Origin: an uncultured virus (IMG/VR IMGVR_UViG_3300024229_000001)
Taxonomy: Duplodnaviria > Heunggongvirae > Uroviricota > Caudoviricetes
Length of the DNA stretch: 64,000 nt
IMG/VR virus record: IMGVR_UViG_3300024229_000001
Direction: 5' to 3' (one strand)
The notes under the pieces were generated by a model, which saw only the letters and a list, made by a program, of their open reading frames with translations, made no database searches and was not told the origin of the DNA. The position numbers and the translations under genes are program-made. Numbering within the stretch: position 1 is the first letter of the stretch; each line of letters begins with the position of its first letter. This document shows positions 14,530 to 31,520 of the stretch, piece after piece.

Positions 14530-14531
14530 CT

Positions 14532-14539: not shown

Positions 14540-14543
14540 AAAC

Positions 14544-15069: not shown

Positions 15070-15274
15070 ACTAATCCTTGAAACGCTGAAAGGCATTTAC
15101 AATAATCGAATTGAGCGTAAAGCAATTCGTGAAACTGAAAAGGCTTTAAGCGCACTATCTAATAAAGACTTAGCAGACATTGGCATCAACCGCGGCGAGA
15201 TCTATGAAATCGCTAGATGTAAATCATCTATTGCCCACGTCAAAGCAAACAAAAATTTGCAGGGATGGGTATAA
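15020..15274 (+). CDS. DUF1127 family small protein
   Basis: LSALSNKDLADIGINRGEI. Confidence 0.8.
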   Translation: MTQHILTVHSYSTRAVELILETLKGIYNNRIERKAIRETEKALSALSNKDLADIGINRGEIYEIARCKSSIAHVKANKNLQGWV

Positions 15275-15444
15275 TGACTGAAGCAGTAATGAAATATGCA
15301 TTTGCACCAGTTAGTGGACTCTTTAGTGGGTTTAATAACTTCTTTCTTTCATTGGGAAGAGCAAGAGCTGCAGCTGAGCTTTCGCGGATGGGTTATCACG
15401 CAGAAGCTAAATATCTAATGACTACTGATGTAGAAGATTTATAG
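15274..15444 (+). CDS. 56-aa protein not in the ORF track (MTEAVMKYAF...GRARAAAELSRMGYHAEAKYLM...)
   Basis: TAATG coupling to the DUF1127 gene; translated by hand. Confidence 0.65.
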   Translation: MTEAVMKYAFAPVSGLFSGFNNFFLSLGRARAAAELSRMGYHAEAKYLMTTDVEDL

Positions 15445-15478
15445 CTCAAAAGTAAGGGTCACTACTCAATAAGTGCGC

Positions 15479-15509
15479 GGGAGGCCACGGTAAGCCTCCC
15501 ATTTATTTT
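15479..15509 (+). terminator. probable intrinsic terminator
   Basis: GGGAGGC-cacggtaa-GCCTCCC followed by ATTTATTTT. Confidence 0.6.
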
Positions 15510-15523
15510 ACAAGGATAGTAGA

Positions 15524-15928
15524 ATGCTTAAGAATATTACTAATAAAATACCCGACTTTTGTATGAGTCACTGGTTGCTAAGAATTCCACTTGCAATCGT
15601 ATTCCTTCAACAAGGATTTGCTAAATGGCCAATTGATGCCGAAACAGCAGCATCATGGGAACTACCTCTTTTAGTTTGGGCATTCGTTGTTCTAGGCGAA
15701 ATTGGAGCAGGCATTGGACTATTAGTCGGTGGATCTCTTTATAAGTATCTAAAAGAGCTCGGCGATATATTAACACGGTTTTCAGGTATTACTATTTGTA
15801 GTATTATGACCGGTGTTATTTGGATGGCACAACCAGAAAGTTTTACTGAAGTATTATTGTATGACAATTTCCACGTCCTATTATGGGTAGGTGGAATGTT
15901 TTTTGCATTGAGAGGAAATAGAACATGA
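15524..15928 (+). CDS. DoxX family membrane protein
   Basis: LLRIPLAIVFLQQG..K, GE..G, several TM helices. Confidence 0.75.
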   Translation: MLKNITNKIPDFCMSHWLLRIPLAIVFLQQGFAKWPIDAETAASWELPLLVWAFVVLGEIGAGIGLLVGGSLYKYLKELGDILTRFSGITICSIMTGVIWMAQPESFTEVLLYDNFHVLLWVGGMFFALRGNRT

Positions 15929-16290
15929 CTAAAAACTTAATAGCATTTATTGCTTTTTTTATCGTAGCAGGTTCCACAGCGCATGCTGATAAAGCATTTC
16001 GTAAATGCGCATCTTGCCATAGTATTGAAGAAGGCGGAAAAAACGGTGCTGGACCAAACCTATGGAACGTTATGAATCGTGGCGCAGCTGTAAATGAAGA
16101 TTATCGTTATAGTAAAAAGCTATTAGCATGGGCAGAAGAAAATCCTCAATGGACTCCTGAGCTTATGGATAAGTGGCTAACCAATTCTAAAAAAATGGTA
16201 AAAGGTACTAAGATGAATTTCAAAGAAAAGAAAGAATCAAAGCGCCAAGCTATTATTGAATACCTACAATCAATGGGTACAGAACAATAA
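15925..16290 (+). CDS. class I cytochrome c (c2-like)
   Basis: Signal peptide, CASCH heme motif, GPNL, GTKM axial Met. Confidence 0.9.
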   Translation: MTKNLIAFIAFFIVAGSTAHADKAFRKCASCHSIEEGGKNGAGPNLWNVMNRGAAVNEDYRYSKKLLAWAEENPQWTPELMDKWLTNSKKMVKGTKMNFKEKKESKRQAIIEYLQSMGTEQ

Positions 16291-16457
16291 AAAATGCATG
16301 GCGAATATGGGCAAAAAGCTTAGGTGAAAAGGTCGGAGAGACTGACACTCAAGCAAACGTGGTTGCCGTCATAAGAACTTTCTGGTGGGTAGTCCATATT
16401 GCTACCTGCTTTATGATTATTATACACAATGGAGCAAAATTAGGATGGTGGCTATGA
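16287..16457 (+). CDS. small membrane protein (IKNAWRIWAKSLGEK...), ATA start or lost start codon
   Basis: 56-codon open frame with hydrophobic C-terminal half; no upstream ATG/GTG/TTG before the conserved-looking WRIWAK segment. Confidence 0.5.
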   Translation: MKNAWRIWAKSLGEKVGETDTQANVVAVIRTFWWVVHIATCFMIIIHNGAKLGWWL

Positions 16458-16666
16458 CAACACTAAGATGGCAAATGATTAATGCAGCACATGACCATGC
16501 CAAAGCACATGTTGAAAAACACAAAATGAATATTGAAATCTATTTAACGAATCCAGCTGGTATTGGTGAACACTCTGATATTATGGATGCAATCGAAAAA
16601 GAACTTGAGGAGATGGCAAAGTATGAAGATCATATGGAAATTCTTAACAAGTACTTCCCAAAATAG
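16454..16666 (+). CDS. conserved hypothetical protein
   Basis: NIEIYL.NPAGIGEH.DI pattern; ATGA overlap. Confidence 0.65.
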   Translation: MTTLRWQMINAAHDHAKAHVEKHKMNIEIYLTNPAGIGEHSDIMDAIEKELEEMAKYEDHMEILNKYFPK

Positions 16667-16747
16667 AGACCTGAGTTTGCATAGAGCTCATACCTCTAAA
16701 TACGAAGATCTATGCATGTAAACACACAACACACAAAGGAGACTATT

Positions 16748-16969
16748 ATGTCTAATAAAAATCCGTTTGAAATCCGTTCTGAAATGTTGCAACTCGCAAA
16801 AGAATATATGGATCAACAACAATCTTTGAATATGGCATTTGCTGAAAACATGGTTGAAGCTGGTAGAAAAACAGCTGAAGAAATGCAACAAGCATATCAA
16901 ATGTATTCAATGGAAGATCTTATGGAAAAAGCTAAAGAGATGTACTCTTTTGTTTCGAAAAAAGACTAA
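16748..16969 (+). CDS. conserved hypothetical protein
   Basis: AAGGAG RBS; NPFEIR.EML.LAK. Confidence 0.7.
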   Translation: MSNKNPFEIRSEMLQLAKEYMDQQQSLNMAFAENMVEAGRKTAEEMQQAYQMYSMEDLMEKAKEMYSFVSKKD

Positions 16970-16974
16970 ATTGT

Positions 16975-17000
16975 AGAGGGACTTCGGTCCCTCTTTTTTT
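16975..17000 (+). terminator. intrinsic terminator with UUCG tetraloop
   Basis: AGAGGGAC-TTCG-GTCCCTCT followed by a T run. Confidence 0.9.
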
Positions 17001-17015
17001 ATTATAGGAACTATC

Positions 17016-17294
17016 ATGATTAAAATTATTAGATTAAATTCTGGCGAAGAACTAATTGCTGAAACAAAAATAGAAGATTTAACATATGTTTTAAGTAATG
17101 TTTCAATAATTATTCCGACCGAAAAGGGAATTGGCCTTATGGACTTTATGGCTTATTCTACTGTTCCAGATAAGGGATTAGAAATTAAATCTGACTTTGT
17201 TGCTTTTACTTCTGAACCAGTTGAAGGTCTATTAAAGCAATATAAATCAGTTCACTCAAAAATTATTACTCCAAGCCAAGGATTAATCACATAA
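17016..17294 (+). CDS. hypothetical protein (Sm-like)
   Basis: IIRLNSGEELIA; typical gene directly upstream of gp43. Confidence 0.6.
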   Translation: MIKIIRLNSGEELIAETKIEDLTYVLSNVSIIIPTEKGIGLMDFMAYSTVPDKGLEIKSDFVAFTSEPVEGLLKQYKSVHSKIITPSQGLIT

Positions 17295-17299
17295 AGTTG

Positions 17300-17328
17300 T
17301 TTACTTTCTCCGCAAACTTTGATATAAT
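17300..17328 (+). promoter_or_regulatory. early promoter for gp43
   Basis: TTTACT-N17-TATAAT. Confidence 0.65.
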
Positions 17329-17354
17329 ATTTACTATGTAATGGAGGTAAACCC

Positions 17355-19880
17355 TTGGAATTCTACACTAACGTAACTCGTTACGGCAACAGTCTTCTTT
17401 ATCGTGGCTACAAAAACGGCCAACGTTTTGAAGACCGTATTAAATTCTCACCAACACTCTATCAAGCAGATCCAAATGGAACCGCGTATACCATGAACGG
17501 TGTGCGCGTTTCTCCACGCTTGTTTGATACAATGCGCGAAGTAAAAGATTATCAGCAAGCATGGAAAGATGTTGGTGGTGCTGATAAAACTCTATACGGT
17601 CAAACTAACTTTGTCTCTTCTTTTATTCAAGAAAAGTTTCCAGACAATATTGAATTTGATCGTGATATTATTAATGTGTCAACAATCGATATTGAAGTTG
17701 CCTCTGATGATGGATTCCCAACTCCAGAAGAAGCAGCTTATCCAGTAATCTCAATTACTATTAAAAACAATATTGATAACATTTATTATGTCTGGGGTCT
17801 ATATGATTATAATCCTTCTGCTTGTACACTTGGTAGTGTCACTGCTAATGATATTGTTTATGTTCAATGTCAAGACGAGCGAGAATTACTCTTACGCTTT
17901 CTTGCTCATTGGAATTCAGATCGTCATTGCCCTGATGTTATTACTGGTTGGAATACCCGCTTCTTCGATATTCCTTACCTCGTAAATCGTATTACTAAAT
18001 TCATTGGCGAAGACTTTGCTAAAAAGATGTCACCTTGGGGTGTAGTCAATCCTCGATCTGTAACAACTATGGGTCGTGAACAACAATACTATAATCTTGA
18101 AGGTATTGCATCTCTTGATTATCTTGAACTTTTCAAAAAGTTTGGTTACTCATATGGTGCTCAAGAATCCTATAAACTAGATCATATTGGTCACGTTGTT
18201 CTTGGTGAACGTAAACTTTCTTACGAAGAATTCTCTTCACTTCATTCTCTTTACAAACACGACTTTCAAAAGTTTATTGACTATAATATCAAAGATGTTG
18301 AACTAGTTGATCGTCTTGAAGATAAGATGGGTTTGATTACCCTTGCACTTACTATGGCTTATCGTGGTGGTGTAAACTATACTGACACTCTCGGCACAAC
18401 CGCGATCTGGGATTCAATTATCTTTCGAGATCTATCTCAACAAGGTATTGTTATTCCTGCTGCTGAAGACAAATTCAAATCCGATTATCCAGGTGGCTAC
18501 GTAAAACCGCCTCAAATTGGTTTACACGAATGGGTTGTTTCTTTTGACTTGGCTTCTCTTTATCCAAACATTATTGTTCAATGGAATATGTCGCCTGAAA
18601 CTATTGTCGATGGTAAGCGTGAACAAATGGATCCAGACATGGCCTTGGCTGGCAATATGCCGCAACTAAAAGGTGACTATGCGCTTGCAGCTAATGGTGT
18701 ATATTTTACCAAAGAAAAGCAGGGCGTATTACCAAAAATCATTGTTGACTATTACAATGAACGTAAAGCTGTTAAGAAACGCATGTTGGCTTCTCAACAA
18801 GAACTTGAAACAATTGATAAATCAAATGTCGTTGAAAAATATCGAGTTGAGCGTGATATTGCCCGTTATGAAAACCAGCAAATGGCGATTAAAATTCTGT
18901 TGAATTCGCTTTATGGCGCATTGGGCAACAAATACTTTCGTTACTTTGATCTTCGTGTTGCTGAAGGTATTACCTTAACTGGTCAAACTGTTATTCGTTG
19001 GGCTGAACGTTCTGTAAACGAATTTATGAATAAAATTGTTGGTACTGATAACAAAGACTATGTAATCGCAATTGATACTGATTCTGTCTACGTTAATTTT
19101 GGCCCTTTAGTTGATAAGTATGTAAAAGATAACCAAGTAGATAATATTGCTCAAATATGCAAAGATCAATTTGAGCCAATGCTTGAAAAATCATATCAAA
19201 ATTTATATGATATGTTTAATTGCTATATGCCTCGTATGGAAATGGACCGTGAAGCAATTGCTGATCGTGGCATCTGGACTGCTAAAAAACGTTATATCTT
19301 GAATGTTCATGACAATGAAGGTGTTCGTTATGCTGAACCAAAACTTAAGATCATGGGTATTGAAGCTATTAAGTCTTCAACTCCATCAGCGTGTCGTGAT
19401 GCACTGAAAGCTTTGTTCAAAGTAATTGTAACCGGTGATGAAGGTGCTACACAAAAAGCAATTCAACAATTCAAAGATTATTTTGTTACATTGCCACCAG
19501 AAAATGTATCCTTTCCACGTGGTGTAAATGACACCATCAAATGGCGGGATCGTAAACTGATCTATAAAAAGGGTACTCCAATCCATGTACGTGGGGCACT
19601 CCTATATAATCATAATGTCAAAGACAAAAGCCTTGATAAGAAATATACACTTATTCAAAACGGTGAAAAGATCAAGTTTTGTTATTTGAAAATGCCAAAT
19701 CCAATCAGAGAAAATGTTATTTCATTCCCTGATTATCTTCCACAAGAATTACAGCTTCATAAATACATTGACTATGATCTGCAATTCAAAAAAACCTTTT
19801 TGGATCCAATTGAACCAATCCTAGATGCTATTGGCTGGTCTGTTGAAGAAAAGGTATCAATTGAAGACTTCTTTGCATAA
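17355..19880 (+). CDS. gp43: family B DNA polymerase gp43 (TTG start)
   Basis: DIE exonuclease motif, SFDLASLYP, KILLNSLYG, DTDS. Confidence 0.97.
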   Translation: MEFYTNVTRYGNSLLYRGYKNGQRFEDRIKFSPTLYQADPNGTAYTMNGVRVSPRLFDTMREVKDYQQAWKDVGGADKTLYGQTNFVSSFIQEKFPDNIEFDRDIINVSTIDIEVASDDGFPTPEEAAYPVISITIKNNIDNIYYVWGLYDYNPSACTLGSVTANDIVYVQCQDERELLLRFLAHWNSDRHCPDVITGWNTRFFDIPYLVNRITKFIGEDFAKKMSPWGVVNPRSVTTMGREQQYYNLEGIASLDYLELFKKFGYSYGAQESYKLDHIGHVVLGERKLSYEEFSSLHSLYKHDFQKFIDYNIKDVELVDRLEDKMGLITLALTMAYRGGVNYTDTLGTTAIWDSIIFRDLSQQGIVIPAAEDKFKSDYPGGYVKPPQIGLHEWVVSFDLASLYPNIIVQWNMSPETIVDGKREQMDPDMALAGNMPQLKGDYALAANGVYFTKEKQGVLPKIIVDYYNERKAVKKRMLASQQELETIDKSNVVEKYRVERDIARYENQQMAIKILLNSLYGALGNKYFRYFDLRVAEGITLTGQTVIRWAERSVNEFMNKIVGTDNKDYVIAIDTDSVYVNFGPLVDKYVKDNQVDNIAQICKDQFEPMLEKSYQNLYDMFNCYMPRMEMDREAIADRGIWTAKKRYILNVHDNEGVRYAEPKLKIMGIEAIKSSTPSACRDALKALFKVIVTGDEGATQKAIQQFKDYFVTLPPENVSFPRGVNDTIKWRDRKLIYKKGTPIHVRGALLYNHNVKDKSLDKKYTLIQNGEKIKFCYLKMPNPIRENVISFPDYLPQELQLHKYIDYDLQFKKTFLDPIEPILDAIGWSVEEKVSIEDFFA

Positions 19881-20513: not shown

Positions 20514-21206
20514 ATGAAGTGGATATTTGATGTTGATGGTACTCTTACACCAAGTAGGAGTAAAATGGATTCTGAATTTAAAGAATACTTTTTAAAGTTT
20601 GCAAAAGCTAATCGAGTATATCTTGCGACGGGATCTGATTACCCAAAGACCGTAGAACAAATTGGTTCTAAAATATGTGAAACAGTAAAAGCTTGCTATA
20701 ATTGCTCCGGTAATTCTATTTGGGTTGCTGGTAAAGAAGTATATAGTGCAGACTGGGAACTACCAGAACTTGCAAGGTACTTCTTAGAAAGCTGTTTGTA
20801 TGAAAGTAAGTTTAGTATACGCACTGGAACTCATATTGAAGAACGTCCTGGTATGGTAAACTATAGTACTATTGGCCGGAATTGTACTCAAGAAGAAAGA
20901 AGCCAATACATTTTATTTGATAAAGAATTTAATGAACGTCACACAATCGCAGATTCATTTAATACAATGTTTCCTGACCTAGAAGCAAAGGTTGGTGGAG
21001 ATACTGGAATTGATATTTTTCCAAAGGGATTAGATAAATCTCAAATTGCACAACACATAAAGGGTTCAGCAATTTTCTTTGGCGATAAAATGATGCCAGG
21101 CGGAAACGACAGACCATTAGCAGAACAAATTGTAAAAAGGTTTGGCGGTCGAGCTATTGAAGTAAAAGGCTGGAAAGATACTTGGAAAAGGATGAAAGAA
21201 ATATGA
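20514..21206 (+). CDS. HAD subfamily IIB hydrolase, eukaryote-type phosphomannomutase-like
   Basis: FDVDGTLT, TGSD, IEER.GM.N, DIFPKG.DK, FFGD....GND. Confidence 0.8.
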   Translation: MKWIFDVDGTLTPSRSKMDSEFKEYFLKFAKANRVYLATGSDYPKTVEQIGSKICETVKACYNCSGNSIWVAGKEVYSADWELPELARYFLESCLYESKFSIRTGTHIEERPGMVNYSTIGRNCTQEERSQYILFDKEFNERHTIADSFNTMFPDLEAKVGGDTGIDIFPKGLDKSQIAQHIKGSAIFFGDKMMPGGNDRPLAEQIVKRFGGRAIEVKGWKDTWKRMKEI

Positions 21207-21376
21207 TTCACTTTAGTTACTATAATTCAGAAATAGAAGAAACTGTAGAAATGCAAACCGATATGGATGATATTTCTACTCATGAACTTTGCAATATGCT
21301 TGAACGATTTATGCTTGCAATAGGTTACGTTTTACCTGAAAATTGCAGTGTACAAATTGCAGAAAATGATGTATAA
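21203..21376 (+). CDS. hypothetical protein
   Basis: ATGA overlap; F.LAIGY motif. Confidence 0.5.
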   Translation: MIHFSYYNSEIEETVEMQTDMDDISTHELCNMLERFMLAIGYVLPENCSVQIAENDV

Positions 21377-21377
21377 T
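21349..21377 (+). promoter_or_regulatory. early promoter
   Basis: TGTACA-N17-TATAAT. Confidence 0.65.
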
Positions 21378-21405
21378 AAACTATATTATGAAAACGGAGA
21401 AACAC

Positions 21406-21609
21406 ATGGCAAAATACGAGCCAAAAACTTATCCTAGTGATACTATCAAAATGAAAAACCATTGGGCCGTTGGCACAGTATGGGATGTTATTGGTAGCCG
21501 CGGAAATAACTATAACGTAGAATTTTTAGATAAAGGTTTTAGCTGTGATTGCCCCGCCTTTAAAAAATGCAAACATATTAAAAAAATAGAGGAAGCTTTC
21601 AATGTCTGA
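21406..21609 (+). CDS. SWIM zinc-finger protein
   Basis: CDCPAF..CKH. Confidence 0.75.
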   Translation: MAKYEPKTYPSDTIKMKNHWAVGTVWDVIGSRGNNYNVEFLDKGFSCDCPAFKKCKHIKKIEEAFNV

Positions 21610-22012
21610 TTGGGCAAATGATATTACTATGATGCACTACAAGTTTGGTGTAAAAGAATGGTTTGAAAAGAATAAGCACGACAAAGAATTGATGAAAAAT
21701 TATCTAAACTTTCGTCTTGCGATGTGTAAAGAAGAACTTGACGAAACAATGGATGCTATTGAAGCAAAAGATCCAGAAGAAATTGTTGATGGTCTTATTG
21801 ATCTTTGTGTTTTTGCAATTGGCACTCTCGATGTATTCGGTGTTGACGCAAACGAAGCATGGGATCGAGTGTATGAAGCAAATATGGCTAAAACACCAGG
21901 CGTAAAAGAAGGTCGTCCAAATCCATTTGGTCTTCCAGATTTGATTAAGCCTGAAGGCTGGACTGCTCCAACACATGAGGCTAATCATGGGAATTTCCCT
22001 GACGCTGTTTAA
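21602..22012 (+). CDS. all-alpha NTP pyrophosphohydrolase (MazG/PRA-PH-like)
   Basis: EELDE, EIVDGLID, V..ANMAK, KPEGW. Confidence 0.8.
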   Translation: MSDWANDITMMHYKFGVKEWFEKNKHDKELMKNYLNFRLAMCKEELDETMDAIEAKDPEEIVDGLIDLCVFAIGTLDVFGVDANEAWDRVYEANMAKTPGVKEGRPNPFGLPDLIKPEGWTAPTHEANHGNFPDAV

Positions 22013-22916
22013 CAGCATTTTTGATAATAAAACTGATAAAAGAATGGATCTCTCGAATTGGCAACAGTTCGAGAGTCTGCTGTATGATCTTTCCACTGTT
22101 GAACGAAAAGACAAGAAAGATGCGCAACTCATCTCACCAGCAACTTATCAACCTGATACTACAAGGGCAAATGCTAATGTAGTTAATTGGGCCGGTTGGG
22201 CTGCAGTTGATGTCGACGATCACGTATTTGAAGGTGACTTAGAAAATGAACTATATAATCGTTATGGTGATTGGTATTACATTTGCTACTCAACTGCTAG
22301 CAGCACTATCGATCATCCGAAGTTTCGACTCGTATTCCCACTTAAAGCTTCGATTGGAGTCGATCAAATTAAGAAATTTTGGTTTGCGCTCAACACTGAA
22401 CTCGGATCAATCGGAGATCGGCAGACTAAAGATTTATCTCGCATGTATTACATTCCTGCGAGCTATGCTGGTGCTAATAATTTTATTTTTACTAATTCTT
22501 CAGGTTCTTACATTGATCCTTATGCTTTAATTGATAAGCATCCAATCGTTGAAAAGAAAGGTTCAAGCTTTTTTGAACGTTTGCCTGAATCAATGCAAAA
22601 GACTATTATCCAGCATCGCAAAGATCAAATGCAAAATAACTCTATTAAATGGGTATCTTATCATGATTGCCCATTTATGAATAAGAACTTAGTTGTAGAA
22701 TATAAAGCACTTACTGGAACTGGTTGGTATCATATGATGTATAGAATTATGGTCTCAATTGCTGGTAATGCAATCAAACGTGAATATCCAATCACAGTTC
22801 AAGAAGTAGTTCAGCTATGTAAAGAACTTGACATGGAAACTGGTAATTGGTATGACAACCGTCCACTTGATAAAGAAGCTGAAAGAGCTATCGAATTTGT
22901 TTATGGAAATATGTAA
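21987..22916 (+). CDS. primase-polymerase (AEP)-like protein
   Basis: DVD, YSTAS, KFRLVFPL, D.SRMYY motifs. Confidence 0.6.
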   Translation: MGISLTLFNSIFDNKTDKRMDLSNWQQFESLLYDLSTVERKDKKDAQLISPATYQPDTTRANANVVNWAGWAAVDVDDHVFEGDLENELYNRYGDWYYICYSTASSTIDHPKFRLVFPLKASIGVDQIKKFWFALNTELGSIGDRQTKDLSRMYYIPASYAGANNFIFTNSSGSYIDPYALIDKHPIVEKKGSSFFERLPESMQKTIIQHRKDQMQNNSIKWVSYHDCPFMNKNLVVEYKALTGTGWYHMMYRIMVSIAGNAIKREYPITVQEVVQLCKELDMETGNWYDNRPLDKEAERAIEFVYGNM

Positions 22917-23353
22917 TGAAATTTAATGCTAAAACTGACTTAGATCCTGCAAGGCTATATAATAGAGCTGAAACAGAAGCTAAACTAATCCACAGTAAAC
23001 CATCAACCGCTCGTGGTAGATCTTTAGAAAATATTATAGAAACTGTTATGTATGGCCATGCTGCAGAATTATATCTAATAGACCATGAAAGTTTTAGTGA
23101 TGATCCACGTGAATATAAAGATGTAATTGATACAGAAGGTAATCAAGTAGAAGTAAAAGTTACTGAAGGCGAATATTATGTTCCGTATGTTTTACAAAGA
23201 TGTAATGACGCCGCAATAGAAACTTGGCGAAAATATCCAGAAGTTCTTTATGTCTTTATTGGTAATAAAGAAACATGTGATTATAAACTACACGGAATTT
23301 ATTTGTGGAATGGTAAACAATTTTGTTTACAAACCGAAGAAGATAATGTATAA
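22916..23353 (+). CDS. hypothetical protein, possible PD-(D/E)xK fold
   Basis: G.AAE...DVID....VEVK spacing. Confidence 0.45.
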   Translation: MKFNAKTDLDPARLYNRAETEAKLIHSKPSTARGRSLENIIETVMYGHAAELYLIDHESFSDDPREYKDVIDTEGNQVEVKVTEGEYYVPYVLQRCNDAAIETWRKYPEVLYVFIGNKETCDYKLHGIYLWNGKQFCLQTEEDNV

Positions 23354-23354
23354 T
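23326..23354 (+). promoter_or_regulatory. early promoter for the DNA-modification operon
   Basis: TTTACA-N17-TATAAT. Confidence 0.65.
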
Positions 23355-23380
23355 ATACCTATTATATTGATGGAGTACCT

Positions 23381-23701
23381 ATGAAATACGATTCAAATAA
23401 ACCACCTTTGCATCTCATTCCACCAGAAATTCTAGTTGAAATTTCTGAAATCTTTGCGTTTGGTGCTGAAAAGTATGGTGAAAACAATTGGCGCGATGAT
23501 GGTGGTTCTACAGGTTATGGTAGAACCTATTCGTCTATTCAACGGCATCTAAATACATTTTGGCAAGGTGAAGATATTGATCCTGAATCTGGTAAAAGTC
23601 ATTTAGTTCATGCTCTTACTCAGTTGATTATTCTCCGCATTCACCAACTTGAGCATCCTGAAATGGATGATCGTTACAATATTACGAGACCAAAGAAATG
23701 A
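23381..23701 (+). CDS. dATP/dGTP diphosphohydrolase-like domain (DUF5664-like)
   Basis: KYDSNKP, GAEKYGENNW, RHL..FWQGEDIDPESG.SHL.HA. Confidence 0.8.
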   Translation: MKYDSNKPPLHLIPPEILVEISEIFAFGAEKYGENNWRDDGGSTGYGRTYSSIQRHLNTFWQGEDIDPESGKSHLVHALTQLIILRIHQLEHPEMDDRYNITRPKK

Positions 23702-24111
23702 TTATAGGATTTACATGTTCTACATTTGATCTGCTTCATGCGGGTCATATTGCTATGTTAAGAGAAGCAAAAGCTCAATGTGATTATCTTATTTGTGGTT
23801 TACAAGTTGATCCTAGTCGAGATCGTAAAGAAAAGAATCCACCAGTACAAAGTTTAGTTGAAAGGCATGTTCAACTTTCTGCTTTAAATTACGTTGATGA
23901 GATCATTCCGTATTGTACAGAAGCTGATTTACTTGATATAATAAACATGTATCCAATCAATGTTCGTATTCTAGGCGATGAATACAAAGACAAAGATTTT
24001 ACTGGAAAAGATGAATGCCGCAAGCGTGGTATTCAACTTTATTTTAATAAACGAGATCATAGGTTCTCATCCTCTGATCTAAGAAAGAGAGTATGTGATG
24101 CTGCTAAATAG
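23698..24111 (+). CDS. glycerol-3-phosphate cytidylyltransferase (TagD)-like
   Basis: FDLLHAGH HxGH motif, YVDEI, RFSSS. Confidence 0.85.
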   Translation: MIIGFTCSTFDLLHAGHIAMLREAKAQCDYLICGLQVDPSRDRKEKNPPVQSLVERHVQLSALNYVDEIIPYCTEADLLDIINMYPINVRILGDEYKDKDFTGKDECRKRGIQLYFNKRDHRFSSSDLRKRVCDAAK

Positions 24112-24796
24112 TGTAAAAGATATTCGTGAATTCTTTATTGGCGAACTAAACGATGAAGCATTTACTATTGACAAAACAGGACAACGCACCATTGAAATGC
24201 TTGGCGCTAATTTTTTAGCAACTGAGCCAGCGATCTTTGGTGAACCAGTTAAGTCTTATATTAATGCTGAGCTTGCTTGGTATGAAAGCGGTTCAACAAA
24301 CATTTACGATATTCATGGTGCTGATAAAGAACCACCTCAAGCATGGCGATATGCTGCTGATCAACATGGCAATATTAATTCTAACTATGGCCATTTAGTC
24401 TTTGCAGACAAGTATCACAATCAATTTTATAATGCTTTTGATGAACTATGGCATAATCCTGATAGTCGCCGCGCTCAAATGGTTTACAATCGTCCATCTA
24501 TCTGGGTTGAATTTGATGAAGGTGGTAAATCAGATTTCATCTGTACTAATGCGCAAACCTTCTATATCCGCGATGGCATTTTGCATATGGTGTCGCAGAT
24601 GCGCTCAAATGATGTTGTGTTTGGATATAAAAACGATTACGCTTGGGCTCAATACTTAATGGATAAGTTTGTTGCTCAATGGAATGAACAATGCAAACTT
24701 CCTGGCAATAAACACTTTACTATTGAAAAGGGTATGCTTACATGGCAGGTAATGAATTTGCACGTATACGAACGTCACTTTAATTTGGTGAAGTAA
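24098..24796 (+). CDS. dCMP hydroxymethylase-like (T4 gp42 family, thymidylate-synthase fold)
   Basis: INSNYG, DFICTN, MRSNDVVFGYKND, NLHVYERHF. Confidence 0.85.
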   Translation: MLLNSVKDIREFFIGELNDEAFTIDKTGQRTIEMLGANFLATEPAIFGEPVKSYINAELAWYESGSTNIYDIHGADKEPPQAWRYAADQHGNINSNYGHLVFADKYHNQFYNAFDELWHNPDSRRAQMVYNRPSIWVEFDEGGKSDFICTNAQTFYIRDGILHMVSQMRSNDVVFGYKNDYAWAQYLMDKFVAQWNEQCKLPGNKHFTIEKGMLTWQVMNLHVYERHFNLVK

Positions 24797-25032
24797 TGAA
24801 TAAATTAATATTAATTAGCGATATTATTGAGCAAAAAGTGCGTAAAGAAAAAGAGCTTCAATACTATCAAGAAGAACTTGAAAAGCTTAAGCAAAAAATG
24901 TGGTTCATTCAAAAAGATATCGATGTTACAAATATAATCATTAATATGATTGAAACAGAAAAAGTAGTAGATTTTAAAGATCAAATGGAAACCAAAATGT
25001 TAGGAGAAGACGATGCCAACTATGAGGGGTGA
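24796..25032 (+). CDS. hypothetical coiled-coil protein
   Basis: TAATG coupling to the preceding gene. Confidence 0.6.
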   Translation: MNKLILISDIIEQKVRKEKELQYYQEELEKLKQKMWFIQKDIDVTNIIINMIETEKVVDFKDQMETKMLGEDDANYEG

Positions 25033-25462
25033 ATGGAACAAACGCTATCTTGATCTTGCCCGTACTGTAAGTTCATGGTCAAAAGATCCATCAAAGAAAA
25101 TCGGTGCTATTGCTGTTGGTACTAAAGGTCAGGTTCTTGCTCAAGGATATAATGGGTTTCCACGCGGTATTAGTCATTCTAGTAAAAGACTAAAAGATCG
25201 CGATTTGAAGTATAAGTACGTAGTTCATGCTGAAATGAATTTGATATATAATGCATCGTACAATGGTGTATCCCTTGATGATTCTACAGTCTATGTTACT
25301 GGTCTACCGGTTTGTTCAGAATGTGCTAAAGGTCTTATTCAAGTTGGTGTTCGTCAAGTGATTATGCCAGTACAAAAAGATACACCAGAAAAATGGAAAG
25401 ATTCATTTGAATTTACTAAAGAATTATTTGAGGAGGCTGGGGTTGCCTGGCAGTTTATATGA
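25013..25462 (+). CDS. cd: dCMP deaminase
   Basis: SKDPS, GYNGFPRG, HAE, PVCSEC. Confidence 0.9.
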   Translation: MPTMRGEWNKRYLDLARTVSSWSKDPSKKIGAIAVGTKGQVLAQGYNGFPRGISHSSKRLKDRDLKYKYVVHAEMNLIYNASYNGVSLDDSTVYVTGLPVCSECAKGLIQVGVRQVIMPVQKDTPEKWKDSFEFTKELFEEAGVAWQFI

Positions 25463-26274
25463 TTGAGCATATTATTATTCCCACGCTAGGTCGTATGGAT
25501 AAACAAGTCACATACAATAATCTACCTAAGAAATATCAAGATAAAGTAACCTTTGTAGTTCAAGCTCATGAGTTTGAAGAAATGAGAGAAAGATATGGTT
25601 CAGCTGTTATTGGTCTCCCTGATAATATATCTAGAATCGCGCCTACGAGAGAGTGGATCTTTAACAACTACCGAGAGTGTCGTCATATGGTTTTTGATGA
25701 TGACCTCGATTTTGTTGTAAAAGAGCCAAATCCCGGTGAAGGTACTAAATGGCTATCACGTCGTTTTACAGAACAAGATTTTGATGACACATTTGGTCTA
25801 ATGAATCAATGGATGGATGAAGGTATTGTCTATGGTGGTTTACTTCCAGCTTGGGTAATTCCAGATGTACGTCAATGGCCAGTTCGTGAGTGTCAACGTA
25901 TTATGACAAACGTATTTTATGATGGGCCAAATGTTCCAGATGGAATTGAATGGAATCGAGTAGCAGCTGCTGAAGACTTTGATGTAAATCTTCAATTGCT
26001 TACAAAAGGTTTTAAAAATCGTATTAGTGCTAAATATATGGTAACATGTTCTGAAACAAATGCCGAAGGTGGTTGTTCTACATGGCGCACTCTTGAAGTA
26101 CATAATGATGCACAAAGAAAACTAGCAGAACTTTGGCCAGACTTTGTAAAGGTTCGCGAAAAAGAAGTTCCTAATGGACCTTGGAAAGGCCAAATAAAAT
26201 TAGCAACTACTATTCAACATAAGAAAGCTTATGAGTCCAGCCAACATCAATCGTTGGAGGATTTTTTCGGATGA
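25459..26274 (+). CDS. GT-A glycosyltransferase (hmC/TET-associated type)
   Basis: IIPTLGR, DDD, EDFD..LQLL.KG, GGC. Confidence 0.8.
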   Translation: MIEHIIIPTLGRMDKQVTYNNLPKKYQDKVTFVVQAHEFEEMRERYGSAVIGLPDNISRIAPTREWIFNNYRECRHMVFDDDLDFVVKEPNPGEGTKWLSRRFTEQDFDDTFGLMNQWMDEGIVYGGLLPAWVIPDVRQWPVRECQRIMTNVFYDGPNVPDGIEWNRVAAAEDFDVNLQLLTKGFKNRISAKYMVTCSETNAEGGCSTWRTLEVHNDAQRKLAELWPDFVKVREKEVPNGPWKGQIKLATTIQHKKAYESSQHQSLEDFFG

Positions 26275-27464
26275 AATATGCAAGTATAGTACCACTCATT
26301 GGTGGTGAAACAATTGCAATGGAAAATGCATTTGGTAAAAGGCCTGAATATATTGTAAGCTATGAACCATTTGCTAATAATGACCAGCATATTGTTGAAC
26401 ATTATAATCATGAAGTTCCATACAATGTAATTACTGAAAATAGTTCTACAAAGTTTGAACAGGTGGATGTTGTAAATACTGTTTGCCCGTGTGCGGGTTT
26501 AAGTAGTCTTTCACCTTCATCTGCTAGTGATAACGTTGCTAATGATTGGATGTTTATTACTTCTGAATATGTACTAGGTACTATGGCACCTAAAGTATTC
26601 TGGGGAGAGAATGCACCACGACTTGCATCTAAAATGGGTGAACCTGTAGTCAAACGCCTTCGTGAAATTGGTAAGAAACATGGTTATACATTCTCAATCT
26701 ATAAGACTAAATCTATTCTTCATGGGTTGAGCCAAGTTCGAGATCGTACGTTTTATTTCTTTTGGAAAGATGATCGTGTTCCTGTCTTTGATTACTTCCA
26801 CCGTCCTCATGAAAAAATTGAGGATATGATTCGATCAGTGCCAAATAATCCAGATGATCCTATGAGTCAAATGCTGACTAATACTAAAAAGCCTACTGAT
26901 AATCCGTTTTATAAGTATGTGCTTGAAGTTATTGAAGGTGGTATTACTCACCAAGAATTTGCTGCTAAGATCGAAAAGACTACTAATCCACTTGATTACA
27001 TTGAAGCCAATGGCATTAAATATAATGAAGTAGGAGAATGGATGGAAGCAAATGGTTTTGAGCGTGAAGCTGCAAAATGCAATCGTATGTATGAAAAGCT
27101 AAAAGCTGGTGGTAACATCATGCGAAAAAATACTGAAATTCCAAAAGATTACTTTGGAGCTTTTGTAGGTCATATGCCAACTTCAACTGCTCATCCAGAT
27201 GAAGATAGATATTTAACTGTCCGTGAAGCTATGGAAGTAATGAAGCTGCCTCGTGACTTTGTTCTACAAGGTGGGCTCAAAAATCTAAATCATATTTGTC
27301 AAAATGTTCCGGTGACAACAGCAACAGATATGGCTGAACAAATTAAAAAATACCTTAGTAACAAGTTAGATACTGTTGATGCTGATTTTATGATTCAATG
27401 TAATAAAACAAAATCACTTGATTACAAACAAATTGGTGTACAGCTAGACGAATTTATGGTATAA
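26271..27464 (+). CDS. C5-cytosine methyltransferase-fold protein with atypical motif I
   Basis: PC, ENA, QVRDR, RYLTVRE, NVP; motif I reads VPLIGG. Confidence 0.8.
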   Translation: MKYASIVPLIGGETIAMENAFGKRPEYIVSYEPFANNDQHIVEHYNHEVPYNVITENSSTKFEQVDVVNTVCPCAGLSSLSPSSASDNVANDWMFITSEYVLGTMAPKVFWGENAPRLASKMGEPVVKRLREIGKKHGYTFSIYKTKSILHGLSQVRDRTFYFFWKDDRVPVFDYFHRPHEKIEDMIRSVPNNPDDPMSQMLTNTKKPTDNPFYKYVLEVIEGGITHQEFAAKIEKTTNPLDYIEANGIKYNEVGEWMEANGFEREAAKCNRMYEKLKAGGNIMRKNTEIPKDYFGAFVGHMPTSTAHPDEDRYLTVREAMEVMKLPRDFVLQGGLKNLNHICQNVPVTTATDMAEQIKKYLSNKLDTVDADFMIQCNKTKSLDYKQIGVQLDEFMV

Positions 27465-27465: not shown

Positions 27466-27495
27466 ATACTTAATATAAATGAAAAGGTGACTTAT

Positions 27496-28566
27496 ATGTC
27501 TGTAATGGATAAACTCAAAAAGAATTCTAAGTTGAAAAATACTGAAGTTCTTTCAAAATCAAAGTTCTTTACCGAAAAAGATATGGTGCCAACTGAAGTA
27601 CCAATGGTAAACGTTGCTTTGTCTGGTTCTGTTGATGGCGGTCTTACTCCAGGTATGACTGTTCTTGCAGGTCCTTCAAAACACTTTAAAACTTCTTTTG
27701 CTCTTTTGATGGCAGCTGCTTATATGAATAAGTACGAAGATGCTGTTATGCTATTTTACGATTCTGAATTTGGTTCTCCTCAATCTTATTTTGAATCATT
27801 TGGTGTAGATCCATCTCGAGTACTTCATACTCCAATTACTAATGTTGAAGAACTTAAGTTTGATTTGATTGGCCAACTTGAAAATATTGAACGTGAAGAT
27901 AAAGTAATTGTTGTAATCGATTCAATTGGTAACCTTGCATCTAAGAAAGAACTTGAAGATGCTATTAATGAAAAGTCAGTTGCTGATATGTCCCGTGCAA
28001 AGGCCTTGAAAGGTCTTTTCCGTATGACAACTCCATATTTGACTATGCGAGATATTCCTCTTTTGGCTATTAACCATACATATCAAGAAATTGGTTTGTT
28101 TCCAAAAGCTGTTGTTTCTGGTGGTACAGGTATCTACTATTCAGCAGATAATATCTGGATTATTGGCCGTCGTCAAAACAAAAAGGGTACAGAAATTACT
28201 GGTTACGACTTTGTGATTAATGTTGATAAATCTCGTTATGTAAAAGAAAAATCGAAGATTCCAATCTCGGTATCTTGGGATGGTGGTGTAGAACAATGGT
28301 CAGGTCTTCTTGAAGTTGCAATGGTTGGTAACTTTGTACGTAAACCAAGTAATGGTTGGTATGAAGCAATGGATCCTGCGTCAGGTGAAGTTCTAAGCCC
28401 AAGTAAAGTTCGTGAAGCTGAAACTCTTACTGAAGAATTCTGGAAGCCAGTATTTGAAAAAACAAACTTCAAAGAGTTCTTAAAAGAACATTATACAATT
28501 GGTTATAAATCTACTATTGATGAAGCCGCATTAGAGGGTGTACTTGAGGGAGGAAATGATGTATAA
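27496..28566 (+). CDS. uvsX: UvsX RecA-like recombinase
   Basis: AGPSKHFKT, YDSEFG, DSIGNLAS. Confidence 0.95.
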   Translation: MSVMDKLKKNSKLKNTEVLSKSKFFTEKDMVPTEVPMVNVALSGSVDGGLTPGMTVLAGPSKHFKTSFALLMAAAYMNKYEDAVMLFYDSEFGSPQSYFESFGVDPSRVLHTPITNVEELKFDLIGQLENIEREDKVIVVIDSIGNLASKKELEDAINEKSVADMSRAKALKGLFRMTTPYLTMRDIPLLAINHTYQEIGLFPKAVVSGGTGIYYSADNIWIIGRRQNKKGTEITGYDFVINVDKSRYVKEKSKIPISVSWDGGVEQWSGLLEVAMVGNFVRKPSNGWYEAMDPASGEVLSPSKVREAETLTEEFWKPVFEKTNFKEFLKEHYTIGYKSTIDEAALEGVLEGGNDV

Positions 28567-28912: not shown

Positions 28913-30245
28913 TAATGAAAGCTTTACACGCAAAGTTATCCCTTTTCTAAAGAAAGATTATTTCGAAGGCAGTCAACGTATTGTCTTCGATCAAATCATT
29001 TCTTTTGTTAGCAAATATAATAAGTTACCAACAGGTGAAGCTTTATCTATTGAGATGGAAGCTCAAGATATTAGTGATGGTCAATATTCTGAAGCAGTTT
29101 CTGTTATTAAAGAAGTTGCAATCCCTCAGGATATTAGTCTCGAATGGCTAGTTGAAAACACTGAAAAATGGTGTCAAGATCGAGCAATTCACCTTGCGAT
29201 TATGAAGTCTATAAATATTTTAGATGGAAAAGATCCGGAACATACAAAGAACGCATTACCGGAACTATTATCAGACGCACTTTCTGTTGGCTTTGACAAT
29301 AATGTTGGTCATGACTATATTGATGACTTTCAAAATCGCTATGAATTTTATCACCGCCAAGAAGAACGTATTCCGTTTGATCTAGATTATTTCAATTCAA
29401 TAACAAAGGGTGGTCTTCCCAATAAAACATTAAATATCGCTTTGGCTGGCACTGGTGTCGGTAAATCTTTGTTTATGTGTCATGTTGCTGGTTCTGTATT
29501 GAGCCAGGGCAAGAATGCTCTTTATATTACAATGGAAATGGCAGAAGAACGTATCGCAGAACGTGTCGATGCTAATCTAATGAATACGCCTATTGATCAG
29601 CTTCCTAATCTATCTAAAGACATGTTTGGCAATAAAGTTGCTCAAATTGCAAACAAGTCTCATGGCAAATTAGTCATTAAAGAATATCCTACAGGTGCTG
29701 CTCACGTTGGCCACTTTAGAGCTTTAATGAAAGAGTTGCAATTGAAGAAAAACTTCAAACCCGATATTGTTTTTATTGACTACCTTAATATTTGCGCTTC
29801 GTCGCGTATGAAAGGAATGGGTGGTGCAATCAACTCCTACTCATATATCAAAGCAATTGCAGAAGAAATCCGAGGACTTGCAGTCGAATTCGATGTCCCA
29901 ATTGTCTCAGCGACTCAAACAACTCGATCAGGATATTCAAACTCTGATGTTGGCCTTGAAGACACGTCGGAATCCTTTGGGCTTCCTGCAACTGCGGATC
30001 TTATGTTTGCCCTCATCAGTAACGAAGAGCTCGAAGGCCTTGGACAAATCCTCGTCAAGCAGCTTAAAAACCGATACAACGACCCAAGTGCCAATAAGCG
30101 ATTCGTTATTGGAGTGGACAGATCTAAAATGAAACTATACGACGTTGAGCAATCAGCTCAAAATATCATTGATGCAGGTCAATCAGCTCCAGTTGCTGAT
30201 TACTCACAAAATAATGTAAAGAAATTTGAAGGATTTAAAGTATAA
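28869..30245 (+). CDS. gp41: replicative helicase gp41
   Basis: AGTGVGKS, EMAEE, DYLNI, SESFG. Confidence 0.95.
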   Translation: MEPNLQTTILRNLINNESFTRKVIPFLKKDYFEGSQRIVFDQIISFVSKYNKLPTGEALSIEMEAQDISDGQYSEAVSVIKEVAIPQDISLEWLVENTEKWCQDRAIHLAIMKSINILDGKDPEHTKNALPELLSDALSVGFDNNVGHDYIDDFQNRYEFYHRQEERIPFDLDYFNSITKGGLPNKTLNIALAGTGVGKSLFMCHVAGSVLSQGKNALYITMEMAEERIAERVDANLMNTPIDQLPNLSKDMFGNKVAQIANKSHGKLVIKEYPTGAAHVGHFRALMKELQLKKNFKPDIVFIDYLNICASSRMKGMGGAINSYSYIKAIAEEIRGLAVEFDVPIVSATQTTRSGYSNSDVGLEDTSESFGLPATADLMFALISNEELEGLGQILVKQLKNRYNDPSANKRFVIGVDRSKMKLYDVEQSAQNIIDAGQSAPVADYSQNNVKKFEGFKV

Positions 30246-30811
30246 TGCAGTACGCTTATTGGACATGGAAAAATTGCTTTAGCAGAGAAGAATGCGATCA
30301 CATTTTAGATTTATGTAAGGGCGAAAAAAAAGAAAGAGGTACAGTAGCTAATAAAGCATATGATTCTTCTAATATTAGAAATAGTACTATTTCTTGGATA
30401 AGACATAATGAAATAGTAAAAAATTTATATCAAGTAGGAAGTGAAGTTAATGTTGAAGCTTTTGGTTTTGATTTATATTCAGATCCTTACATTAATGGTG
30501 TTCAATTTACTGAATATAGCGGTGAAGAAAAACAACATTATAGTTTTCATCTTGATACAATATTTAATGAAGAAAAATACAATTTTAAAGAAAGAAAATT
30601 ATCACTAATATTACAACTTTCTGACCCAAGTGAATATGAGGGAGGAGACTTGTTTTTAAAGATTGCTGAAAAAAATATTAATTTAAATAATTTAAAACAA
30701 AAAGGAACGCTAATTGCATTTCCTTCTTGGATTTTACATAAAATTACTCCAGTAACTAAAGGAACTAGACACTCTTTAGTTACGTGGCTTAATGGCCCAG
30801 CTTGGCGCTAA
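30245..30811 (+). CDS. 2OG-Fe(II) oxygenase (PKHD/prolyl hydroxylase-like)
   Basis: HLD, RKLS, YEGG, H.ITPVTKG.R.SLV.W. Confidence 0.85.
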   Translation: MQYAYWTWKNCFSREECDHILDLCKGEKKERGTVANKAYDSSNIRNSTISWIRHNEIVKNLYQVGSEVNVEAFGFDLYSDPYINGVQFTEYSGEEKQHYSFHLDTIFNEEKYNFKERKLSLILQLSDPSEYEGGDLFLKIAEKNINLNNLKQKGTLIAFPSWILHKITPVTKGTRHSLVTWLNGPAWR

Positions 30812-30833: not shown

Positions 30834-31520
30834 ATGCATGCACGTCTCATCTCCCATAGTCAACCCTCAGATCGAATCCACACTGGCGAACTTGCAACGC
30901 AGGGGCTTGACAATATCCAAGACCTCATCGCTTACGCAGCCCGTGTGTCCAATCCAGCAAACCAAGCTAACACCAAGACAACACCAAAGCTACTTGAGTA
31001 TCTCATCAAACATAAACACTGGTCACCATTCGAAATGGCATCAGCCTGTATCGAAGTTGACACAACCCGAGACATCGCAAGACAGCTCCTCCGACACCGA
31101 AGCTTTTCATTCCAAGAGTTTTCTCAAAGGTATGCTGACGTCCGCGATCTTAGTGATTCTGTTGTAATTAAAAAGGCACGTTTGCAAGATCCAAAGAATC
31201 GCCAAAATAGTATTGTGCATGATGACGTATCGCTTCATAATACTTGGGAAGTACAGCAAAAAGCAGTTTGGCAACGAGCGATGCAAGCTTACGAATGGGC
31301 AATTGAAAATGGTATTGCAAAAGAACAAGCCCGTGCTGTTCTTCCTGAAGGTAATACACCATCACGCTTATACGTAAATGGTACTATTCGCAGTTGGATT
31401 CATTATATTGAACTACGCTCATCTAATGGTACTCAACTAGAGCATATTGAACTTGCTCGAGCTGTAGCTGAAGCTATTAGTAAAATCTACCCTAAAGTGG
31501 CAGATTTTATTGAAGATTGA
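30834..31520 (+). CDS. thyX: flavin-dependent thymidylate synthase
   Basis: HWSPFE, RHRSFSFQEFSQRY. Confidence 0.95.
   Translation: MHARLISHSQPSDRIHTGELATQGLDNIQDLIAYAARVSNPANQANTKTTPKLLEYLIKHKHWSPFEMASACIEVDTTRDIARQLLRHRSFSFQEFSQRYADVRDLSDSVVIKKARLQDPKNRQNSIVHDDVSLHNTWEVQQKAVWQRAMQAYEWAIENGIAKEQARAVLPEGNTPSRLYVNGTIRSWIHYIELRSSNGTQLEHIELARAVAEAISKIYPKVADFIED

Follow-up and report, generated by a model that had tools for sequence, protein, structure and literature searches.

The locus described here occupies positions 20514-27464 of a 64,000-nucleotide stretch of DNA (IMG/VR record IMGVR_UViG_3300024229_000001; this whole stretch is called the window below) from an uncultured marine T4-like myophage with a G+C content of about 35%. 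It is a co-oriented gene block built around a gp42-type deoxycytidine monophosphate (dCMP) hydroxymethylase, and we interpret it as a locus that probably makes glycosylated 5-hydroxymethylcytosine (5hmC) DNA. The block lies between the family-B DNA polymerase (17355-19880) and UvsX (27487-28566), with all genes on the + strand, in a window that also encodes further replication genes (clamp, clamp loader, RegA and a DnaB-like helicase) together with RNase H, ribonucleotide reductase, PhoH and peptide deformylase. An overlapping IMG/VR record (G001; 70.8 kb, 39% complete by CheckV) is identical across the modification block and extends the window by about 42 kb upstream, where only T4-type structural genes are found.

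Families were called by profile searches with Pfam, NCBIfam and PHROG, and solved Protein Data Bank (PDB) structures were compared where possible. The genes on which the interpretation rests are as follows.

20514-21206, + strand: eukaryotic-type phosphomannomutase (PMM) of the HAD-IIB type; PF03332, E 3.3e-29, 102.7 bits (cut-off 22.4)
21602-22012, + strand: MazG-like all-alpha NTP pyrophosphohydrolase; PF01503, E 3.9e-11; phrog_671, E 2.7e-24; MazG-like DR2231 in the PDB, E 1e-4
23381-23701, + strand: 106-aa protein of PF18909 (dATP/dGTP diphosphohydrolase N-terminal, formerly DUF5664), E 2.3e-28; phrog_801, E 3.4e-34
23698-24111, + strand: small cytidylyltransferase-family nucleotidyltransferase (CT); PF01467, E 1.4e-12
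24095-24796, + strand: gp42-type dCMP hydroxymethylase, a thymidylate-synthase homologue; T4 dCMP hydroxymethylase 1b49, E 5.9e-57
25013-25462, + strand: dCMP deaminase (dCD); PF00383, E 1.4e-17; phrog_174, E 2.7e-40
25459-26274, + strand: TAGT-family GT-A glycosyltransferase, 271 aa; PF20691, E 9.9e-21; phrog_842, E 2.2e-45
26271-27464, + strand: C5-cytosine DNA methyltransferase (MT); PF00145, E 5.1e-19
30834-31520, + strand: ThyX flavin-dependent thymidylate synthase; PF02511, E 1.4e-42

A sequence-only reading of this DNA had listed nine co-oriented and mostly translationally coupled gene families as a cytosine hypermodification set. The profile searches confirmed all nine families, each at its expected place and on the + strand, and the coupling was borne out as well: from PMM to MT, 10 of the 12 junctions overlap by 1-38 nt (CT and gp42 by 17 nt), the remaining two being gaps of 11 and 27 nt. 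That list had passed over one open reading frame (ORF; 22916-23353, 145 aa), and its diphosphohydrolase corresponds to the 106-aa ORF at 23381-23701.

The locus was compared with two sets of relatives. The TAGT-sampled set consists of 38 IMG/VR loci with a TAGT relative, the window's own record among them, and includes near-duplicates (L014=L015, L017=L018, L020=L021, L022=L024, L039=L040=L041). The MT-sampled set came from a scan with an MT alignment that returned at least 549 IMG/VR loci, 80 of which were kept; 76 were examined (L052-L127), some re-covering TAGT-sampled contigs, leaving 70 distinct loci. T4-like relatives in the TAGT-sampled set conserve the unit gp42 - dCD - TAGT - MT, and gp42 is present in 26 of the 27 MT-sampled loci having at least 6 kb upstream of MT. 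The conserved frame is gp42 - dCD - variable decoration cassette - MT - UvsX, and the cassette of the window is the simplest.

The hydroxymethylase and the predicted base

The gp42-type enzyme has the T4 dCMP hydroxymethylase as its best PDB match, followed by MilA as the next solved relative (E 1e-8), and is about 47% identical to T-even homologues. This match upholds the earlier proposal of a cytosine-modification locus built on a gp42-type enzyme. The Asp of its YKND motif, which the sequence-only reading had placed at the position conferring dCMP specificity, indeed aligns with Asp179 of T4 gp42, where the D179N mutant chain 6l18 has N. All 22 distinct relatives keep the catalytic Cys, the Asp three residues ahead of it (ThyA-143), RSND (ThyA Asp169) and YKND (N177 to Asp), and Asp169 is retained in a six-sequence alignment too.

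Two bases had been proposed, 5hmC or 5-hydroxycytosine. According to PMC13326640 (2026), some phage thymidylate-synthase homologues make 5-hydroxy-dCMP; N177 to Asp and an acidic ThyA-143 are shared with the 5-hydroxymethyl type and do not discriminate alone, while Asn at ThyA-169 occurs in all tested 5-hydroxy-dCMP synthases, such that Asp169 separates the two types. The window enzyme could in principle, then, be a flavin-dependent 5-hydroxy-dCMP synthase of the RB69/DLP3 type, with TAGT glycosylating 5-hydroxycytosine. However, the RB69-type Asn is not present in it. Because Asp at ThyA-169 is kept in the window enzyme and in all 22 relatives, against Asn in every tested 5-hydroxy-type enzyme, the enzyme is strongly predicted, on homology and active-site residues, to make 5-hydroxymethyl-dCMP and not 5-hydroxy-dCMP. 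T4 gp42 is furthermore by far the closest solved relative (E 6e-57 versus 1e-8 for MilA), and sister phages carry homologues of the T4-type DNA alpha-glucosyltransferase (AGT). We therefore regard a 5-hydroxycytosine route as very improbable, and only the 5hmC half of the earlier alternative stands.

The dCMP deaminase gene lies downstream of gp42 in nearly all relatives, and its HAE motif is found in 15 of 15. ThyX is conserved downstream in relatives, and its confirmation by profile agrees with the suggestion that it can supply dTMP and so free the gp42-like enzyme for dCMP. The MazG-like gene is present in every related locus covering its position, and its product is a candidate functional analogue of the T4 gp56 dCTPase. 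The PF18909 protein, for which no PDB sequence match was found and whose gene is carried by only some relatives, is a second candidate nucleotide pyrophosphatase.

A variable decoration slot and optional putative donor genes

The TAGT-family enzyme is the sole glycosyltransferase in the dCD-MT slot of the window. It scores 75.1 bits against PF20691 (cut-off 27.5) and belongs with phrog_842, the PHROG family of the T-even 'beta-glucosyl-HMC-alpha-glucosyltransferase'; the TAGT family was reportedly defined by Iyer et al. in 2013. A tblastn search matched 688 phage records, mostly T-even-like, with 26-32% identity among the matches listed and with many matches annotated as beta-glucosyl-HMC-alpha-glucosyltransferase. 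All 22 relatives keep its DDD motif, and a structural model built from 16 sequences (pLDDT 76) has a GT-A fold, its best solved neighbours being AvpGT, TarP and K4CP (chondroitin polymerase), all of them distant at a TM score of about 0.4. As had been noted from the sequence, the window shows no T4-type GT-B enzyme: none of the 79 window ORFs scanned with profiles matched AGT, and seven sister-phage AGT homologues used as tblastn queries had no match in the window.

Among the 70 distinct MT-sampled loci, 35 display both dCD and MT, and the content of the slot between them was tabulated.

TAGT, in one locus with an aminotransferase: 7 of 35 loci
T4-type DNA alpha-glucosyltransferase homologue alone (PF11440, E down to 2e-83): 4 of 35
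AGT and an NAD-dependent epimerase: 9 of 35
AGT, epimerase and UDP-glucose dehydrogenase (UGDH): 2 of 35
AGT-like protein, HAD and NTP-transferase: 1 of 35
unknown protein, UDP-galactopyranose mutase and epimerase: 1 of 35
inositol-1-phosphate-synthase-like protein, 5-HMUDK-like kinase and unknown protein: 9 of 35, with FkbM methyltransferase added in 4
other sets: 2 of 35

Because TAGT, AGT or other sets occupy this interval across the 35 loci, the dCD-MT slot is best read as a 5hmC-decoration slot. The window-type TAGT is one occupant among several, adjoining MT in only 8 of 65 evaluable MT-sampled loci. TAGT is predicted to be a 5hmC-DNA glycosyltransferase from its family membership and from the slot that it shares with AGT homologues; the swap of T4-type AGT homologues for TAGT in one slot is the best available evidence that TAGT acts on 5hmC DNA.

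One type of slot content merits separate description. Besides an inositol-1-phosphate-synthase-like protein (PF01658, E about 2e-7), this cassette encodes an unknown protein of some 344 aa and another that carries the helical domain of 5-hmdU DNA kinase (PF18723, E 1e-9 to 5e-12). The cassette lies between dCD and MT in L071, L078-L080, L082, L083, L092, L094, L098, L101, L102, L106, L110, L115, L120-L122 and L126, some copies adding the FkbM methyltransferase. Because a dCMP-type hydroxymethylase precedes the cassette, it may direct a kinase-driven hypermodification of 5hmC rather than of 5-hydroxymethyluracil (5hmU). No paper on such a cassette turned up in our literature search.

TAGT, CT and PMM might instead act on host envelope glycans (lipopolysaccharide or O-chain), with only gp42, dCD and MT concerned with DNA. 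Homologues of CT and PMM do occur in cyanophages and Vibrio phages without the pathway, and in PMC7029224 the glycosyltransferases and rfaE of pelagimyophages are given a role in modifying the O-chain. The closest record in the phage collection, phage C48C1 (L045, OQ984149.1; polymerase 55% identical), carries in its own polymerase-UvsX interval (14495-18241) a different DNA methyltransferase, a primase, a nucleotide-sugar epimerase and a UDP-glucose dehydrogenase, and no thymidylate-synthase homologue, gp42 or TAGT was found in it; sugar-nucleotide genes can therefore occupy this backbone region without a 5hmC pathway. Against an envelope role for TAGT, however, its family (PF20691, phrog_842) is defined by DNA-base glycosylation, and T4-type DNA alpha-glucosyltransferase homologues take its place in the slot. 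TAGT is moreover flanked by the gp42-dCD pair and MT in T4-like relatives: the only TAGT-sampled loci in which it was found without MT are L033 and L039-41, and the latter three retain gp42 next to it. On balance we hold the envelope explanation to be improbable.

The sequence-only reading had gone further, combining PMM and a TagD-like enzyme into a donor-synthesis set for the glycosyltransferase. PMM itself is a convincing family member (PDB phosphomannomutases, E 2e-33), with the catalytic DVDGT and GDK..GGND motifs retained in an alignment to Candida PMM 5ue7. CT is assignable to PF01467 at the family level only and apparently not to the TagD equivalog: it scores alike against rfaE_dom_II (70 bits; cut-off 181.5) and TagD TIGR01518 (67.6 bits; cut-off 165.4), far below both cut-offs, and its PDB matches are ethanolamine-phosphate cytidylyltransferase (ECT; E 9e-23) and TagD (E 1e-13), with an HxGH motif present.

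Both genes are patchily distributed. Of the 25 TAGT-sampled relatives that could be evaluated, 8 have CT immediately before gp42 (L007, L008, L009, L012, L013, L017, L018 and L038) and 17 lack it at this place, though their TAGT is 56-82% identical to that of the window. CT stands beside gp42 in 5 of 28 MT-sampled relatives, where the accompanying cassettes are of three types (TAGT, AGT with epimerase, and AGT with epimerase and UGDH). On a tree of 20 distinct TAGT sequences, CT presence needs at least three changes, at least two of which the well-supported branches make unavoidable; CT is missing from L037 but present in its sister L038 (support 99/98). The relative G007 (100% complete, 146,617 bp, terminal repeats) has its CT copy (1348-1770; 73% identical) next to a clamp-loader gene, some 10 kb away from gp42 (11116-12030). 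The Vibrio phages Va1 and phiKT1024 have a CT of 72% identity, copies in Synechococcus, Vibrio and Caulobacter phages are at 49-53%, and the complete genome of Va1 has no TAGT and neither a glycosyltransferase nor a thymidylate-synthase homologue near CT. Relatives of CT in marine metagenomes number at least 8000, the best 120 all at least 80% identical. PMM was found in only 3 of the 37 other TAGT-sampled loci (L009, L012 and L013), many loci being too short to cover its position, and has homologues of 45-53% identity in the cyanophages S-SSM7, S-SSM6a and P-TIM68. Because presence is patchy, with repeated changes on the tree, varied glycosyltransferase cassettes, a distant copy in G007 and a copy in Va1 without TAGT, CT and PMM appear to be optional auxiliary genes that would at most top up or vary the sugar-nucleotide supply, the pathway needing neither.

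These distributions bear on the possibility that PMM and the TagD-like CT make a special donor (NDP-heptose or CDP-glycerol) that TAGT or an unrecognised transferase adds to 5hmC, so that this sub-clade would have a base that bears something other than glucose and may be new. Such a role would fit the retained PMM motifs and the position of CT where it occurs, which abuts or overlaps the gp42 start in 8 of 8 TAGT-sampled and 5 of 6 MT-sampled CT-positive loci; L059 (MT-sampled) even has a CT-like gene within the decoration slot, immediately ahead of MT. There is also a precedent, as the preprint by Pyle et al. (2023, 10.1101/2023.12.21.572611) describes a HAD/APH enzyme, a cytidylyltransferase and a GT-B as all required for heptosyl-5hmC. 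The absence of CT beside gp42 in most TAGT-bearing relatives nevertheless tells against it, as do the rarity of PMM, the spread of CT over three cassette types and its occurrence in Va1 and across marine metagenomes. CT and PMM also lie outside the dCD-MT slot, unlike the donor enzymes of other cassettes, which are kept inside it; in relatives without CT and PMM, no donor genes were found near TAGT among 80 scanned ORFs except a class-V aminotransferase (L037). In addition, GT-A enzymes with a DxD motif typically use NDP-sugars and not the phospho-alcohols of CDP-alcohols. We consider a special donor unlikely: the proposed donor-synthesis set is not borne out, and because CT and PMM appear optional, the earlier inference of a CDP-glycerol-derived or otherwise uncharacterised base finds no support.

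The methyltransferase and other genes of the block

MT lies directly upstream of UvsX behind every cassette type. In an alignment to M.HaeIII it shows CPCAGLS, GENAP, QVRDR and QNVPV, with the N-terminal glycine loop present; all 27 relatives have the motifs PC, GEN[AV], QxRxR and C-terminal QNVP, and 26 of the 27 have [LI]IGG. The family counts 2451 relatives at E <= 1e-5 and is found in only 6 cultured-phage records, at 31-32% identity. A partner oxidase of the TET type was not seen: Tet_JBP (PF12851) matched none of 5 relatives' records, and the scanned ORFs of the window and the upstream 42 kb gave no Pfam TET match. The 2OG-Fe(II) oxygenases of the window (13936-14529 and 30245-30811, both PF13640; 33213-33851, PF13759) are not of the TET/JBP type.

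The association of this methyltransferase family with dCMP-type thymidylate-synthase homologues recurs in two cultured phages. In Pseudoalteromonas phage vB_Psh_XG4 (L048, PP712099.1; an unannotated record), a co-oriented cluster at 100-6580 runs from a gp42-like gene (Asp169 kept) through a 131-aa ORF, a 559-aa NTP-transferase, a GT-B-like gene and a 368-aa ORF to an MT of the window family, and is likely, judging from its genes, to be a cytosine glycosylation cluster in a cultured phage. In cyanophage S-TIM5, 2.4 kb separate a window-family MT from a thymidylate-synthase homologue that carries Asp at 177 (N177 to Asp). A further gene found near MT in XG4 is DUF6267, which also lies downstream of MT in L020, L026 and L028 and is followed by DUF5824/DUF6321 in L026; in the window, a DUF6267 protein (E 2e-103) opens the stretch 35870-38925, with a 153-aa ORF next and then a 445-aa protein that carries DUF5824 and, at its N-terminus, a weak resemblance to cytidylyltransferases (phrog_3041/395 'cytidyltransferase'), a second nucleotidyltransferase-like gene of the window. 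Elsewhere in the window, a class I SAM methyltransferase (5263-5826; PF13578, O-methyltransferase-like; phrog_2675 'DNA methyltransferase') stands beside peptide deformylase, and a Methyltransf_24 gene resembling it occurs in the decoration region of L075. At 15524-16290, within the replication region, a DoxX-like membrane protein adjoins a cytochrome c domain protein.

The remaining ORFs of the block are the following.

21182-21609, + strand: two small ORFs, 64 and 73 aa, with no Pfam, NCBIfam or PHROG match
21975-22916, + strand: primase-like replication protein; phrog_9765 'DNA primase', E 3.7e-54; no Pfam match
22916-23353, + strand: PD-(D/E)XK-type nuclease candidate, 145 aa, from fold neighbours and an invariant triad; no Pfam match
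24796-25032, + strand: 78-aa ORF without significant Pfam, NCBIfam or PHROG match, present in 5 distinct related loci

The second of the two small ORFs has, read by eye, a zinc-finger-like CxC...CxH pattern. The primase-like gene had been counted in the modification set as a primpol-like protein; its primase-like character holds, and it is conserved in relatives. Because it is also present in C48C1, annotated 'DNA primase' at the equivalent position, in the absence there of gp42 and TAGT, it belongs to the replication backbone and not to the modification pathway.

The 145-aa protein has 212 representative relatives, and E51, D69 and K81 are invariant in 73 aligned sequences; among these 73 members, Pfam gave no match beyond two chance-level ones. 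Its structural model has a pLDDT of 96.7, and its named Foldseek neighbours are PD-(D/E)XK nucleases only, all weak (E >= 0.007): RecE, Eco15I-N, NhoI, influenza PA-N, a Cas4-family protein and PvuII. The protein may be a nuclease that targets unmodified DNA. A lead from the ESM Atlas (0.92) to T4 endonuclease IV (DenB) found no support from sequence: BLASTP gave E 7.1, and hhalign a probability of 0.15% with 6 sequences and of 10% (E 0.003) with 73.

Proposed pathway and comparison with known systems

Taken together, we estimate at roughly 65% the probability that the locus makes glycosylated 5hmC DNA by T-even logic with partly different parts, CT and PMM being optional. In this scheme the MazG-like pyrophosphatase, perhaps together with the PF18909 protein, would lower dCTP and yield dCMP, which the gp42-type enzyme is strongly predicted to turn into 5-hydroxymethyl-dCMP, while dCMP deaminase and ThyX would maintain the dTMP supply. 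A kinase would then phosphorylate 5-hydroxymethyl-dCMP, a gap in the pathway for which our searches identified no gene, and the family-B polymerase of the phage would incorporate the modified nucleotide. Finally, TAGT would move a sugar onto 5hmC in DNA, most likely from a host-made NDP-hexose, as its family and its equivalence to AGT in the slot suggest.

Several points weigh against this scheme. One is the missing kinase: T4 gp1, the deoxynucleoside monophosphate (dNMP) kinase, had no phmmer match at E <= 10 in the window, in the 42 kb upstream of it or in the 38 related loci; no lone P-loop kinase was found in the window; and among 5 related records, one of them a 100%-complete genome, none matched T4 gp1 and none had Thymidylate_kin above cut-off. 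(The complete relative G007 shows no T4 gene 1 homologue, no Thymidylate_kin match and no obvious small P-loop kinase.) About 40% of the phage genome, moreover, lies outside the sequence examined (CheckV 39%, 70.8-kb record); a kinase gene may lie there, or the kinase may have another fold. The placement of CT against gp42 wherever both were seen together, with the few departures counted above, could reflect a functional link, and the requirement for a cytidylyltransferase in heptosyl-5hmC synthesis points the same way. Lastly, a conserved, catalytically intact MT would have no obvious substrate if 5hmC fully replaces cytosine.

One speculative answer to this last point is that MT methylates residual unmodified cytosines at specific sites. 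Because it is always behind the decoration slot and never with a TET partner, MT may have a role new for 5hmC phages, either placing a second mark (sequence-specific 5-methylcytosine on leftover cytosine beside glycosyl-5hmC) or acting in some new way tied to 5hmC, and in the window sub-clade CT might add a second, CDP- or ADP-activated group; we advance this tentatively and think it rather unlikely. In the limited open literature, where absence is not proof, we found no paper that unites a dCMP hydroxymethylase, a cytosine methyltransferase and a glycosyltransferase in a phage.

If the proposed pathway is correct, decorated 5hmC takes the place of cytosine in an abundant clade of T4-like ocean phages, whose decoration cassette is exchanged at one fixed genomic slot. 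The locus is present, in contig form, in 24 seawater sequencing runs, and its companion MT in the 549 or more IMG/VR loci noted above. In viromes, hypermodified DNA is liable to be recovered poorly or read incorrectly. For biotechnology, the clade would supply a natural range of DNA glycosyltransferases and donor-synthesis sets, and it would also provide a testable case of a C5-methyltransferase retained in a 5hmC phage.

The T-even 5hmC pathway comprises the gp56 dCTPase, gp42, the gp1 dNMP kinase, cd and alpha- and beta-glucosyltransferases, with a beta-glucosyl-HMC-alpha-glucosyltransferase in T2 and T6. The window shares with it a gp42-type enzyme, a dCMP deaminase, an all-alpha NTP pyrophosphatase and a phrog_842 glycosyltransferase, and with T4 a common replication and structural backbone. 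It differs in having no gp1 homologue in the sequences searched and no GT-B alpha- or beta-glucosyltransferase in the window; since TAGT is the sole glycosyltransferase there, it would have to act on bare 5hmC and not on glucosyl-5hmC. ThyX replaces T4 td, and the window phage has a conserved C5-methyltransferase, which T4, to our knowledge, lacks.

Phage clusters that join a methyltransferase, a 5mYOX (TET) enzyme and a glycosyltransferase (Burke et al. 2021, PMC8256090; Pyle et al. 2023, 10.1101/2023.12.21.572611) likewise place a GT-A of the TET-associated family beside a C5-methyltransferase. Unlike in those clusters, no TET/JBP enzyme was found in the window; the hydroxymethyl group would be added before replication by the gp42-type enzyme, and MT is kept without an oxidase. 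The contig 53 cluster for heptosyl-5hmC, described in the preprint of Pyle et al., resembles the window in having a HAD enzyme, a cytidylyltransferase and a DNA glycosyltransferase on one phage contig; there, however, the glycosyltransferase is a GT-B and the HAD enzyme is fused to an APH-like kinase, whereas the window has a GT-A and a PMM as its HAD enzyme. The PMM of the window lies 2.5 kb from CT (PMM end 21206, CT start 23698), and both are dispensable in most relatives.

The arabinosyl-5-hydroxycytosine pathway of RB69 and DLP3 also uses a dCMP-specific thymidylate-synthase homologue, followed by post-replicative glycosylation with phage donor genes, as set out in PMC13326640. In contrast to that pathway, the window enzyme lacks D169N, its glycosyltransferase is a GT-A where those of RB69/DLP3 are GT-B, and none of the donor genes reported there (arabinose-5-phosphate isomerase, phosphatase, NTP-transferase/kinase) was found in the window. 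In Pyle et al. (10.1101/2023.12.21.572611), IMG/VR GT-A enzymes are linked about evenly to 5mYOX and to thymidylate-synthase homologues, with dCMP deaminase accompanying the latter. The kind of system seen in the window is already known, from the T-even 5hmC pathway and from the IMG/VR contigs of that preprint that join a GT-A to a thymidylate-synthase homologue.

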